The position numbers were made by a program, and so were the translations under genes. The notes under the pieces are model-generated. The model was not told where the DNA came from. It did not search any database and worked only from the letters and a program-made list of their open reading frames with translations. Shown one piece after another: positions 32,638 through 37,846 of a stretch of 64,000 nucleotides of DNA; positions within the stretch are counted from its first letter, which is position 1; each line of letters begins with the position of its first letter. Origin of the DNA: Escherichia coli (GTDB lineage Bacteria > Pseudomonadota > Gammaproteobacteria > Enterobacterales > Enterobacteriaceae); the NCBI RefSeq assembly GCF_048403405.1, contig NZ_CP183129.1. One strand, written 5' to 3'.

Positions 32638-33564
32638 ATGAATTATTCTTTAAAACAATTAAAGGTTTTCGTCACAGTAGCGCAGGAGAAAAGTTTTAGT
32701 CGTGCAGGAGAGCGTATCGGCCTGAGCCAGTCGGCAGTGAGTCACAGTGTGAAGGAGCTGGAATATCATACTGGTGTTCGCCTGCTGGACAGAACCACGC
32801 GTGAAGTGGTGCTTACAGATGCAGGGCAGCAGTTGGCTTTGCGTCTTGAGCGACTGCTGGATGAACTGAACAGCACGTTGCGCGATACCGGGCGTATGGG
32901 GCAACAACTGAGCGGAAAAGTTCGGGTCGCTGCCAGCCAGACCATTTCCGCGCATCTTATTCCGCAATGCATTGCTGAAAGCCATCGCCGCTATCCAGAT
33001 ATTCAGTTTGTCCTGCACGATCGTCCGCAGCAGTGGGTGATGGAAAGTATTCGTCAGGGAGATGTCGACTTTGGCATCGTCATCGATCCAGGCCCAGTGG
33101 GCGATCTGCAATGTGAAGCGATTCTTTCCGAGCCTTTCTTTCTGCTTTGCCATCGCGATAGCGCTTTGGCCGTGGAAGATTATGTACCCTGGCAGGCATT
33201 ACAGGGAGCGAAATTGGTGTTGCAGGATTACGCGTCAGGCAGCCGACCGCTGATTGACGCAGCGCTGGCGCGCAATGGTATTCAGGCGAATATTGTGCAG
33301 GAGATTGGACATCCGGCGACGCTGTTCCCGATGGTAGCCGCAGGCATCGGCATTAGTATTCTTCCCGCACTGGCGCTGCCGTTACCTGAAGGTAGCCCGC
33401 TGGTGGTAAAGCGCATTACGCCGGTGGTGGAACGCCAGTTGATGCTGGTGCGCAGGAAGAACCGTTCACTTTCCACCGCCGCACAAGCGTTATGGGACGT
33501 GGTACGAGGCCAGGGCCGTGCGCTAATGGCTGGGCGGGAAGGGGAGCCGCTGTATCAGATATAG
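32638..33564 (+). CDS. yfeR: YfeR, LysR-family regulator
   Basis: 308-aa ORF with N-terminal LysR HTH. Confidence 0.88.
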
Positions 33565-33896
33565 ATATCGATCTGAGTCGTTTTTTCAACAGGATTTGGA
33601 AGGGATGCATTCAAAGACAAACGCTGCTCTTTCTCCTGCGCCTTTTCTGCCTGCTGTCTTTGCAACTGCGCCAGTTGTGTTTCCAGTAGGGTGATTTGCT
33701 GCTGAATCAATTCGGCCTGTTTTTGCTTGTCTTCAGCACTGCCGCTAGTGTCTGCAATCTCTTTAATTTGTTGAGTGAGTTTGATGATTTGCTGACTTAT
33801 CCGCGCAATTTGTGAAGCAACATCGCTACCTTCTGATGCCCTGTTACTACTCTGTGTTTGTATGGAAGGAATTGAAGTTGGAGAGATAGTGGCCAT
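33555..33896 (-). CDS. Hypothetical Gln-rich coiled-coil protein (FlxA-like), 113 aa
   Basis: ORF with heptad-like LQxQ repeats in the position where K-12 carries yfeN-xapABR; assignment by resemblance only. Confidence 0.4.
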
Positions 33897-33982
33897 TGTT
33901 CAGTCCTCGTCACTGTACGAGGTAATATCGGCAGAAGAACAAGGAACTTGAGAAGAAAAATCAATCTTACAAACCGCATATA

Positions 33983-34009
33983 GCAAAAAAGCGCCTTTAG
34001 GGCGCTTTT
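33983..34009. terminator. Bidirectional hairpin terminator after the tRNA cluster
   Basis: aaaaaagcgcc ttta gggcgctttttt. Confidence 0.65.
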
Positions 34010-34013
34010 TTAC

Positions 34014-34089
34014 ATTGGTGGGTCGTGCAGGATTCGAACCTGCGACCAATTGATTAAAAGTCAACTGCTCTACCAACTGAGCTAACGAC
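34014..34089 (-). tRNA. lysV: tRNA-Lys (UUU)
   Basis: 76 nt, reverse complement GGGTCGTTAGCTCAG...ACTTTTAATCA...CCACCA. Confidence 0.95.
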
Positions 34090-34093
34090 CCGA

Positions 34094-34169
34094 AGTGGTG
34101 GGTGATGACGGGATCGAACCGCCGACCCCCTCCTTGTAAGGGAGGTGCTCTCCCAGCTGAGCTAATCAC
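34094..34169 (-). tRNA. valY: tRNA-Val (UAC)
   Basis: 76 nt, anticodon loop CCTTACAAGG, 3' CCA. Confidence 0.95.
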
Positions 34170-34215
34170 CCACTTCGGTACTTCACATTTTTACAAGAAA
34201 TTTAGCTGGCGAGAA

Positions 34216-34291
34216 AGTGGTGGGTGATGACGGGATCGAACCGCCGACCCCCTCCTTGTAAGGGAGGTGCTCTCCCAGCTGAGCTAATCAC
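34216..34291 (-). tRNA. valX: tRNA-Val (UAC)
   Basis: Identical 76-nt copy. Confidence 0.95.
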
Positions 34292-34335
34292 CCACTTCTC
34301 AATTTCTTGCTACACGGCGGAGACTACATAAAGTA

Positions 34336-34411
34336 GTTGGTGGGTGATGACGGGATCGAACCGCCGACCCCCTCCTTGTAAGGGAGGTGCTCTCCCAGCT
34401 GAGCTAATCAC
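34336..34411 (-). tRNA. valU: tRNA-Val (UAC)
   Basis: Identical 76-nt copy. Confidence 0.95.
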
Positions 34412-34671
34412 CCCCGCTGTGTGGAGTCGCATTATAGGGAGAGTTCAAAATGAGTCAACGCATTTTCTAAAGAAATTGTTCGTTCGTCGTAAATTTAAGC
34501 AAGATGATCGCAAAACAGACCGTGTTGCGCAATTTGTCAACGAAAACAATAATGCGTAAGGTTGCAACCCGAACTACATTGAGGAATCAGGCGGGAGTGA
34601 TAGAATATCGCCCACTCAATTTTTCCAGGATTTGCCGGTTGTCGGCATCTTTCTAAACGTAAGGCCATTTC

Positions 34672-36087
34672 ATGAAAATCAAAACTCGCTTCGCGCCAAG
34701 CCCAACAGGCTATCTGCACGTTGGCGGCGCGCGTACTGCTCTTTACTCCTGGCTTTTTGCACGTAACCACGGCGGTGAGTTCGTGCTGCGTATTGAAGAC
34801 ACCGATCTTGAGCGTTCCACGCCGGAAGCTATCGAAGCCATTATGGATGGCATGAACTGGCTGAGCCTGGAGTGGGATGAAGGTCCGTACTTCCAGACCA
34901 AACGTTTTGATCGCTACAACGCGGTGATCGATCAGATGCTGGAAGAGGGCACAGCTTATAAATGCTATTGCTCTAAAGAGCGCCTGGAAGCGCTGCGCGA
35001 AGAGCAAATGGCGAAAGGTGAGAAGCCGCGTTATGACGGTCGCTGCCGCCACAGCCATGAGCATCATGCTGATGATGAACCGTGTGTTGTACGTTTTGCT
35101 AACCCGCAGGAAGGTTCTGTTGTTTTTGACGATCAGATCCGTGGTCCGATCGAATTCAGCAACCAGGAGCTGGATGATCTGATTATCCGTCGTACCGATG
35201 GTTCTCCAACCTATAACTTCTGTGTGGTGGTTGACGACTGGGATATGGAAATCACCCACGTTATCCGTGGCGAAGACCATATCAACAACACGCCACGCCA
35301 GATCAACATTCTTAAAGCACTGAAAGCGCCGGTACCGGTTTACGCGCACGTTTCTATGATCAACGGCGATGACGGCAAAAAACTGTCCAAACGTCACGGG
35401 GCGGTCAGCGTAATGCAGTATCGTGATGACGGTTATTTGCCAGAAGCACTGCTGAACTATCTGGTGCGTCTGGGCTGGTCCCACGGCGATCAGGAAATCT
35501 TCACTCGTGAAGAGATGATCAAATACTTCACCCTGAATGCCGTCAGCAAATCTGCCAGTGCGTTCAACACCGACAAGCTGCTGTGGCTGAACCATCACTA
35601 CATTAACGCGCTGCCGCCGGAGTATGTTGCTACTCAATTACAGTGGCACATTGAGCAGGAAAATATCGATACCCGTAACGGCCCGCAGCTGGCTGATCTG
35701 GTGAAACTACTGGGTGAACGCTGCAAGACGCTGAAAGAGATGGCACAGAGCTGCCGCTATTTCTACGAAGATTTTGCTGAGTTCGATGCCGACGCCGCGA
35801 AAAAACATCTGCGTCCGGTAGCGCGTCAGCCGCTGGAAGTGGTTCGTGACAAACTGGCCGCGATTACTGACTGGACCGCTGAAAACGTTCATCACGCTAT
35901 TCAGGCGACGGCGGATGAGCTGGAAGTGGGGATGGGTAAAGTTGGTATGCCGCTGCGTGTCGCCGTAACCGGTGCGGGGCAGTCTCCGGCGCTGGATGTT
36001 ACCGTTCACGCAATCGGTAAGACCCGCAGTATCGAGCGTATCAACAAAGCGCTGGCTTTTATTGCTGAACGCGAAAATCAGCAGTAA
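34672..36087 (+). CDS. gltX: GltX, glutamyl-tRNA synthetase
   Basis: 471-aa ORF with HIGH-type motif (PTGYLHVGG) and KMSK-type motif (KLSKR). Confidence 0.95.
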
Positions 36088-36210: not shown

Positions 36211-36630
36211 TTGCTGTTGTTCAATGTATTGGCGGATGACGGATATTGGCGCACCTCCGCAGCTACTGGCAAAATAGCCAGGACTCCACAAAACGCCTTT
36301 GTAGTAATACCTGACGGCAATATCTGGTCGATCTCGTCGCAGTCACCTACCCGATACGCCTTTGAGGCTGTTTACCAGACTGGATATCGCCAGTTTGGGA
36401 GGATAGTTAATTAACAAATGGACGTGATCTGGTTCGCCATCCATTTCAACCAGTTCAGCTTCAAAATCAGCACATACCTTTGAAAAGTAAGTGCGTAGTT
36501 TTTCTGTCGCGTCATGGTCAAAAATCTGGCGTCGGTATCTGGTGACAAAGACCAGGTGAACATGCATCAGGAAAACACAATGCCTTCCACGCCGGATATC
36601 GGTTTCTTTTTTCACAGACCAAAGTATCAT
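36211..36630 (-). pseudogene. tnpA: tnpA (IS200/IS605 Y1 HuH transposase) interrupted by an in-frame TGA at 36343-36345
   Basis: N-terminal ORF 36343..36630 carries HuH (PDHVHLLI); the same frame continues after the stop through RLRRDRPDIAVRYYYKGVLWSPGYFASSCGGAPISVIRQYIEQQ (ORF 36088..36291). Confidence 0.7.
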
Positions 36631-36637
36631 TTGGCCT

Positions 36638-37846
36638 GTGAAACGACTACAGGCATTTAAATTCCAGTTAAGACCCGGTGGTCAACAGGAGCGTGAAATG
36701 AGGCGCTTCGCAGGCGCATGTCGTTTCGTTTTCAATCGTGCTCTGGCGCTTCAGAATGAGAATCATGAGGCCGGTAATAAATACATCCCTTACGGGAAAA
36801 TGGCTTCCTGGCTGGTTGAGTGGAAAAACGCCACTGAAACGCAATGGCTTAAAGATTCGCCCTCACAGCCATTGCAACAGTCACTGAAAGACCTTGAGCG
36901 GGCTTACAAAAACTTCTTCCGGAAGCGGGCTGCTTTTCCCCGATTCAAAAAGCGGGGACAGAATGATGCATTCCGCTACCCGCAGGGCGTTAAGCTCGAT
37001 CAGGAAAACAGCCGTATTTTTCTGCCGAAACTTGGCTGGATGCGCTACCGGAATAGCCGTCAGGTCACGGGTGTTGTGAAAAATGTCACTGTCTGCCAGT
37101 CCTGCGGTAAGTGGTACATCAGTATTCAGACAGAAAGTGAAGTATCAACTCCGGTTCACCCTTCAGCATCAATGGTCGGGCTGGATGCTGGCGTGGCTAA
37201 ACTCGCCACGCTGTCAGATGGCACAGTCTTTGAGCCTGTAAACAGTTTTCAGAAAAACCAGAAGAAGCTGGCGAGACTTCAGCGACAGTTAAGCCGCAAG
37301 GTCAAATTCAGCAACAACTGGCAGAAGCAGAAACGCAAAATACAGCGACTGCATTCCTGTATCGCAAATATCCGCAGGGACTACCTTCATAAAGTCACAA
37401 CGACCGTCAGCAAAAACCACGCAATGATAGTCATTGAGGATTTGAAGGTCAGTAACATGTCAAAGTCAGCAGCGGGTACGGTCAGCCAGCCGCGGCGCAA
37501 TGTCCGGGCAAAATCAGGTTTAAACCGTTCGATACTGGATCAGGGCAGGTATGAAATGCGCCGCCAGCTTGAGTACAAGCAGCTCTGGCGTGGCGGTCAG
37601 GTGCTTGCTGTTCCGCCAGCGTACACAAGCCAGCGTTGCGCGTGCTGTGGTCATACAGCGAAAGAAAATCGCCTGTCACAAAGTCAATTCAGATGCCAGG
37701 TATGTGGATATACAGCGAACGCCGATGTAAACGGCGCTCGTAACATTTTAGCGGCGGGGCACGCCGTTCTTGCCTGTGGAGAGATGGTGCAGTCAGGCCG
37801 CCCGTTGAAGCAGGAACCCACCGAAATGATTCAGGCGACAGCCTGA
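36638..37846 (+). CDS. tnpB: TnpB (IS605 OrfB-type RuvC-like nuclease), 402 aa, GTG start
   Basis: N-terminal KFQLRP...FNRAL; RuvC-I GLDAGV, RuvC-II VIEDLK, CxxC...CxxC zinc finger (CACCGH...CQVCGY), Ruv[13 protein letters not shown]. Confidence 0.85.

Follow-up and report, generated by a model that had tools for sequence, protein, structure and literature searches.

The interval between yfeR, which encodes a LysR-family regulator, and the tRNA gene lysV raises a simple question in Escherichia coli: where the xanthosine genes that K-12 carries at this site are missing, has the chromosome merely lost an island, or does a gene with a role of its own stand in its place? We addressed this in a 64,000-nucleotide stretch of E. 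coli DNA (RefSeq assembly GCF_048403405.1, contig NZ_CP183129.1), hereafter the window, in which the gene order is cysZ-zipA-ligA-ypeB-yfeH-yfeR, a small ORF, lysV-valY-valX-valU, gltX, IS609 and yfeD-yfeC-alaX-alaW-pdeA. An earlier note on this DNA had proposed that xapABR-yfeN is absent here, that the interval is only about 450 bp long, and that it encodes a single 113-aa protein on the minus strand. The comparison bears this out: the yfeR stop codon ends at 33564 and tRNA-Lys(UUU) starts at 34016 (ORF list, ARAGORN), leaving 451 bp with one gene-like ORF, whereas K-12 (strain DH1, locus L002) has yfeN, xapA, xapB, a DUF1427 ORF, xapR and an RtT element between the same two genes and does not have this ORF at that position. 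Strain TUM14771 is 100% identical to the window across the queried 821-bp junction.

Pairwise alignment with K-12 places the left breakpoint at 33565/33566, one base past the yfeR stop codon, and the right breakpoint at 33974/33975, within the terminator/RtT repeat found after lysV. Between these points the window has 409 bp and K-12 has 4,559 bp of unique sequence, and because the two inserts share no similarity, the window allele is a replacement and carries no deletion scar. It is a clean allele replacement relative to K-12, which goes beyond a simple absence or deletion of xap. The terminator of the lysV operon lies in the K-12-homologous region common to both alleles, is conserved in all orthologous loci, and stands between the tRNA operon and the promoter of the small gene, which we call flxA-like for reasons given below. 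Please note that this obvious terminator was missed by the terminator scan, and that an Rfam scan of 33300-34700 returned the four tRNAs only, with no element in the unique segment. The features of the locus are collected in Table 1.

Table 1. Features of the yfeR-lysV interval in the window.
Feature	Position	Strand	Basis
yfeR, LysR-family regulator; conserved left flank, convergent with flxA-like	32638..33564	+	ORF list, RefSeq annotation
flxA-like family protein CDS, 113 aa + stop; final 10 nt shared with the 3' end of convergent yfeR	33555..33896	-	ORF list, Pfam, RefSeq, dN/dS, orthologues
409-bp allele-specific segment (flxA-like + promoter), in place of the 4.56-kb yfeN-xapABR-RtT of K-12	33566..33974		breakpoint alignment, allele counts
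Shine-Dalgarno GAGGA, 7 nt before ATG	33904..33908	-	sequence reading
Predicted sigma-28 (FliA) class-3 promoter	33925..33951	-	pattern search, orthologue alignment
Intrinsic terminator hairpin of the valU-valX-valY-lysV operon, AAAAAAGCGCC-CTAAA-GGCGCTTTTTT	33985..34011	-	sequence reading
lysV tRNA-Lys(UUU) + three tRNA-Val(UAC); conserved right flank	34016..34413	-	ARAGORN, Rfam

Two repeat-type features of the neighbourhood deserve mention on their own. The terminator unit after lysV (33970-34033 in the window; 12665-12728 in L002; 3220-3345 in locus L003) is part of an RtT-type repeat of variable copy number, and the right breakpoint of the allele replacement falls in this repeat; a full RtT element is not present in the window, one is annotated in K-12, and one in the flxA-like strain SW4848. 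Between gltX and yfeD the window also carries an IS200/IS605-family, IS609-like element (36343-37846), in which tnpA, on the minus strand, is a pseudogene and the 402-aa TnpB/InsQ ORF (36638..37846) is intact. This insertion is found in O157:H7 EC4115 and is absent from K-12; it is missing from SW4848 as well, and it is therefore not strictly linked to the flxA-like allele.

How common is each arrangement? Among 5,426 complete E. coli genomes, the 409-bp flxA-like segment occurs in 1,317 (24%), always as one chromosomal copy annotated as FlxA-like and never on plasmids, and it is full length in 1,307 of the 1,317; the 4.6-kb yfeN-xap segment of K-12 is at least 80% present in 4,066 (75%). The two counts sum to about 99% of the genomes, so the yfeR-lysV site in E. 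coli has two near-exclusive alleles, flxA-like or yfeN-xapABR, which agrees with the variable locus beside a tRNA cluster that the earlier note had suspected. Carriers of the flxA-like allele include O157:H7, O145, O121 and B/BL21(DE3), and the protein cluster of the gene also holds Shigella members. Minor variants of the allele exist, such as the extra RtT unit in SW4848 and an IS1203 inside the ORF in 1916D18. One genome, MLI104K2 (locus L019, NZ_CP116925.1), was considered as an intermediate carrying flxA-like and xapB and was rejected, since the region is a homopolymer-riddled mosaic of low-identity pieces: at positions 4890-6100 of L019, pieces of flxA-like, xapA and xapB with 78-94% identity are mixed with an exact copy of part of the K-12 yfeR-yfeN flank and with long C/G/T runs. 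This interval is most likely an artefact of collapsed or mixed long-read assembly and no third allele. The yfeN-xapABR island itself (L002 8267-12700) falls into two deep haplotypes, with 3,511 genomes at least 99% identical to K-12 and 1,642 at 90-95% (ST131, NRG 857C). A divergence of about 7% seems high for E. coli genes, and it suggests that the polymorphism is old or was imported more than once.

From the viewpoint of K-12, this polymorphism has been described before. For O157:H7, the missing xap genes already have a catalogue entry, K-loop 178 / K-island 103 (K-loop#178 / KI#103); comparative hybridization papers list XapA/XapB as a K-12-specific loop, and in a population survey about half of the isolates of phylogroups A and B1 had xapB/xapR, as against none of the D and E isolates. 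KI#103/K-loop#178 is the same polymorphism as the one examined here; the KI#103 hybridization paper and the phylogroup survey record whether xap is present and say nothing of the replacing gene. Our literature search by gene name and guessed O157 locus tag found no paper on a flxA-like gene replacing xap, and the guessed tags led only to gltX (ECs3278). What was known, then, is an annotated family member at a catalogued, common variable locus; what is added here are a conserved sigma-28 promoter (predicted), synteny across genera, and evidence of exchange with Pseudocitrobacter.

Is the 113-aa ORF a gene? The protein (MATISPTS...QIDIYI) is Gln/Leu-rich, of ~12 kDa, and its residues 15-92 match positions 4-82 of the 101 in the Pfam profile PF14282 (FlxA) with 55.7 bits against a gathering score of 26.3 (E=5.9e-15). 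RefSeq labels it "FlxA-like family protein" in TUM14771 (WP_000201400.1), and with K-12 FlxA it shares 45% identity across 74 aa in the helical core (E=3e-13), so that the FlxA-like resemblance proposed at the outset stands, and the many homologues found by protein search dispose of the worry that the frame is a translation artefact. By the Nei-Gojobori method, dN/dS comes to 0.13 in the comparison with Pseudocitrobacter faecalis, 0.10-0.16 with Kluyvera and 0.18 with a different E. coli allele. The start codon, the Shine-Dalgarno sequence and the C-terminal IDIY[IV] are kept across orthologues in alignments of 10 and 52 members. Because the Pfam match lies above the cut-off, RefSeq annotates the gene, dN/dS is low, and start, Shine-Dalgarno sequence and C-terminus are conserved, the ORF is a genuine gene and an already-annotated member of the known FlxA family. 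It is a small family, with 212 representatives at 50% identity (E<=1e-3) among 1.84 billion proteins; the large protein collection stores the 113-aa protein solely as truncated or over-extended gene calls.

These data bear directly on the view that the frame is decaying or spurious, a leftover in the scar of a xap-island deletion. In its favour, the protein is short, of low complexity and Gln-rich, an IS1203 insertion breaks the gene in at least one strain, and the gene persists in E. coli B lineages, which are not known to be motile, so that it would be without expression there. However, the 409-bp segment is not homologous to K-12 sequence, nearly all carriers keep the gene at full length as counted above, dN/dS is 0.1-0.2, and promoter, Shine-Dalgarno sequence, start and C-terminus are conserved across genera. 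We regard the leftover explanation as already effectively refuted and barely credible.

The protein has the shape of its family, i.e., about 100-120 aa in which the N-terminus varies, two helices are rich in Gln/Leu, and the C-terminus ends in a hydrophobic tail of the IDIY[IV] type. The earlier note had read the LQxQ heptad-like repeats as a coiled coil, of which the Gln-rich helical character is retained and the single long coil is not: AlphaFold2, run with a 52-sequence alignment, predicts helices at residues 22-49 and 54-96 (pLDDT about 85), with residues 1-21 (pLDDT below 50) and 99-113 disordered. The predicted fold is an antiparallel two-helix hairpin with disordered ends, so that the protein begins with a disordered Ser/Thr-rich N-terminus, continues through the hairpin into a disordered linker, and closes with the conserved C-terminal IDIY[IV] tail. 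The sequence shows no visible signal of the Sec type. Further searches for relatives gave little: NCBIfam had no model above cut-off and coiled-coil noise only, a sequence profile search of the PDB found designed or generic coiled coils only, and Foldseek against the PDB gave 0 matches at E<=0.001. A Foldseek match to a CdsO/FliJ-family stalk (6wa9_M, E=0.39, TM 0.80 on the target) was set aside, being no better than generic hairpins. Among the PADLOC defence models the only match, of coiled-coil type, was to PbeC (E=0.0056, 13 bits), which gives no membership in a defence system, and the sole PHROG match was phrog_11044 (1.4e-9), the family of unknown function to which Qin FlxA belongs.

The gene is not confined to E. 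coli. At least six other Enterobacteriaceae taxa share the gene order gltX - valU/X/Y-lysV - flxA-like - yfeR - yfeH - ypeB - ligA, in which flxA-like and yfeR converge and overlap at their ends, with amino acid identities to the window protein of 84-88% in Pseudocitrobacter, 57-71% in six Kluyvera species, 59% in Pluralibacter, 55% in Scandinavium goeteborgense, 53% in Enterobacter roggenkampii and 47% in Enterobacter hormaechei. Because the gene occupies the same lysV-flxA-like-yfeR position in these six taxa, it is an old occupant of the site and not deletion debris. Citrobacter freundii has yfeR-xapA-xapB-xapR-lysV, without yfeN and without flxA-like, and one Enterobacter sp. contig reads yfeH-flxA-like-xapA-xapB-xapR, without yfeR; the flxA-like and xap modules can therefore coexist. 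The site is thus widely occupied by flxA-like, and xapABR represents a second module of old standing there. Please note that a contig scan by peptide patterns gave no Escherichia locus, and that the same patterns also missed Enterobacter. In the contig of an uncultured Pseudocitrobacter MAG (L005 1-640), the tRNA array is Lys-Val-Lys-Lys-Lys instead of Val-Val-Val-Lys, which reflects either a rearranged operon or a metagenome mis-assembly across repeats.

Could the gene nevertheless be the remnant of a mobile element, i.e., of a prophage or integrative island at lysV, with xap simply lost or never gained? The K-12 paralogue flxA sits in the cryptic prophage Qin, the phrog_11044 match points in the same direction, the site adjoins a tRNA cluster, and the GC content is slightly low (44-47% versus 51-56% in the flanks). 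Against this, the ORF list shows no integrase or other mobility ORF in the interval, a repeat search found no att-like direct repeats bracketing 33566-33974, and tblastn against 50,697 phage records gave 0 matches. The single gene has identical synteny and the same 3' overlap with yfeR in the six other taxa, its divergence roughly follows taxonomy, and it is found as one chromosomal copy that is never plasmid-borne. We consider a mobile-element remnant very improbable.

The flanking genes tell how the locus may have been reshuffled. In ligA, yfeH and gltX, E. coli shows 79-87% DNA identity to every other genus, with no favourite. In yfeR (32638-33564; both E. coli allele types compared with L005, L006, L026, L028, L029 and L007), E. 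coli is 87% identical in DNA to Pseudocitrobacter and only 71-75% to Citrobacter, Kluyvera, Scandinavium and Enterobacter. The flxA-like DNA of E. coli is 85% identical to that of P. faecalis and 94% to that of the Pseudocitrobacter MAG, and the latter two are 85% identical to each other in flxA-like, yet 91% in ligA and yfeH. This gene-sized discordance of yfeR and flxA-like with ligA, yfeH and gltX implies transfer between genera: at least one recombination event, and probably two, carried yfeR and/or flxA-like from one of the Escherichia and Pseudocitrobacter lineages to the other. Since all E. coli have the Pseudocitrobacter-affine yfeR, and this yfeR is joined to flxA-like in Pseudocitrobacter, parsimony leans slightly towards yfeR-flxA-like having come first in E. 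coli, with yfeN-xap replacing it later.

Upstream of the gene lies the element that tells most about it, and that the earlier note had missed. On the minus strand, a predicted -35 element TCAAGTTC (33951..33944) is separated by an 11-nt spacer from a -10 element GCCGATAT (33932..33925), which ends 28 nt ahead of the flxA-like ATG; the orthologues have the near-consensus FliA form TCAAGnnn-N11-GCCGATA. A search of the 64-kb window finds the core pattern TCAAGTTC-N11-GCCGATAT a single time, and none of 100 shuffles contains it. When the upstream regions of 11 orthologous loci are aligned, TCAAG with TGCCGATA, the Shine-Dalgarno sequence and the ATG are the only invariant blocks, and the spacer is fixed at 11 nt with variable sequence. 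All 15 orthologous loci examined (7 taxa) have the motif, 27-31 nt before the ATG, and it is kept in L017, where xapA takes the place of lysV as the upstream neighbour. A sigma-70 promoter scan found none upstream of the ORF. ChIP-seq-validated FliA promoters of K-12 have the same form, e.g., those of flgKL (TCAAGTCC..GCCGATAA), modA and motA (GCCGATATT), and deletion of fliA was reported to take K-12 flxA itself from 280 down to 2, with a separate study giving a 28-fold drop; this dependence gave K-12 flxA its name. Farther out in the family, sigma-28-like motifs stand 31-38 nt upstream in three of five sampled distant members from other bacteria, and one of the two members without such a motif adjoins a CheW-domain gene; the family loci that were examined all lie outside flagellar gene clusters. 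Taken together, FliA-dependent, class-3 expression of flxA-like from the predicted promoter is very likely, i.e., the gene would be transcribed from its own FliA promoter as a late member of the flagellar regulon, like its Qin-prophage paralogue flxA. We hold with considerable confidence the combined reading that this is a genuine FlxA-family gene with predicted sigma-28 class-3 expression and one of two near-exclusive alleles at yfeR-lysV.

The short leader offers a side observation. CCTCGT (33922..33917), right after the -10 element, can pair with the ACGAGG that contains the Shine-Dalgarno sequence, and the minimum free energy hairpin of the leader (33897-33924) is -8.6 kcal/mol. An equivalent pairing is seen in Pseudocitrobacter and in some Kluyvera loci with two compensatory changes (CCTTAT/ATAAGG); the fold is not found in all orthologues. 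If transcription starts about 7 nt after the -10 element, the FliA transcript would be without the anti-Shine-Dalgarno arm, and a read-through transcript from the tRNA operon would carry it, so the hairpin could be a translational insulator against such read-through.

What the protein may do is a matter of more doubt. Our leading but weak guess is that it is exported through the flagellar type III apparatus, i.e., that it would be a late substrate and not a cytoplasmic factor; we hold the export reading to be possible rather than probable. By analogy with K-12 flxA, the gene would be dispensable for motility. Published exoproteome data quantify K-12 FlxA in the cell-free fraction alongside the flagellar export substrates FlgK, FliD, FliC, FlgL, FlgM and FlgE; the same exoproteome also holds cytoplasmic proteins (CheY, isocitrate lyase), so lysis is another possible source. 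At 42 C, FlxA protein and mRNA of K-12 are reported to respond in opposite directions, and that temperature has been shown to destabilize the flagellar export apparatus. The disordered residues 1-21 together with the predicted sigma-28 promoter are compatible with export substrates, although they are non-specific.

The main alternative to export is a cytoplasmic role, in which the helical hairpin would be an adaptor, regulator or chaperone of the late flagellar programme that stays in the cell, with FliA/FlgM, the FlhA platform or an export chaperone as possible binding partners. The sigma-28 promoter evidence applies equally to this reading; the two-helix hairpin is a common module of protein-protein interaction, the conserved IDIY[IV] tail resembles a docking peptide, and the weak, non-significant Foldseek match to CdsO (6wa9_M, E=0.39) came up among generic hairpins. 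It sits less easily with the detection of K-12 FlxA outside cells together with export substrates, and neither the PDB profile search nor Foldseek gave a significant structure or sequence match to a known flagellar chaperone or regulator. A cytoplasmic adaptor is, in our judgement, conceivable and on the doubtful side. E. coli B strains are not known to be motile, and the retention of flxA-like in E. coli B/BL21 counts against the flagellar-regulon explanation. Returning to export, we may extend it to a broader and still more tentative picture, which we think rather unlikely as a whole: the FlxA family would be unrecognized small proteins secreted late through the flagellar type III apparatus, with a fixed site in Enterobacteriaceae and copies in lambdoid prophages, and the E. 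coli polymorphism would be a long-lived choice between a secreted factor and xanthosine catabolism, reshuffled with Pseudocitrobacter.

Whichever function applies, the view of the locus changes. About a quarter of E. coli, including O157:H7, O145, O121, Shigella and B/BL21, is without the xanthosine genes here and carries a small predicted flagellar-regulon gene in place of these catabolic genes; since the flxA-like arrangement is common to other genera, the picture of a 'missing island' is K-12-centric. The gene would be a conserved, chromosomally anchored addition to the short list of FliA-dependent genes without a known role, and the set of chromosomal orthologues may serve the study of the FlxA family better than the prophage copy of K-12. 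The locus is also a clear example of inter-genus exchange, with a tRNA cluster on one side and a regulator gene on the other. If export is true, the FlxA family would be a new flagellar secretion substrate.

It remains to set the window protein beside the systems that it resembles. Late (class 3) export substrates of the FlgM type are, like the window protein, small, with a sigma-28 promoter (here predicted), a disordered N-terminus and no Sec signal, and the K-12 FlxA paralogue is found extracellularly with FlgM, FlgK, FlgL, FliD and FliC; our searches found no sequence or fold relationship between the window protein and the known flagellar export substrates, and its membership in this group is hypothetical. 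Another of the closest known systems is K-12 FlxA itself (b1566, Qin cryptic prophage). The window gene is chromosomal and syntenic across genera, whereas K-12 flxA is prophage-borne; the DNA similarity of the two genes is below blastn detection, their N-terminal and linker sequences are unrelated, and the chromosomal type has no tblastn match in sequenced phages. Both proteins nevertheless belong to the same PF14282/PHROG 11044 family, they are of similar length (110 aa in K-12 versus 113 aa in the window) with a shared architecture and a C-terminal IDIY[VI], and each gene has a sigma-28 promoter, predicted for the window gene, about 23-28 nt before its ATG.
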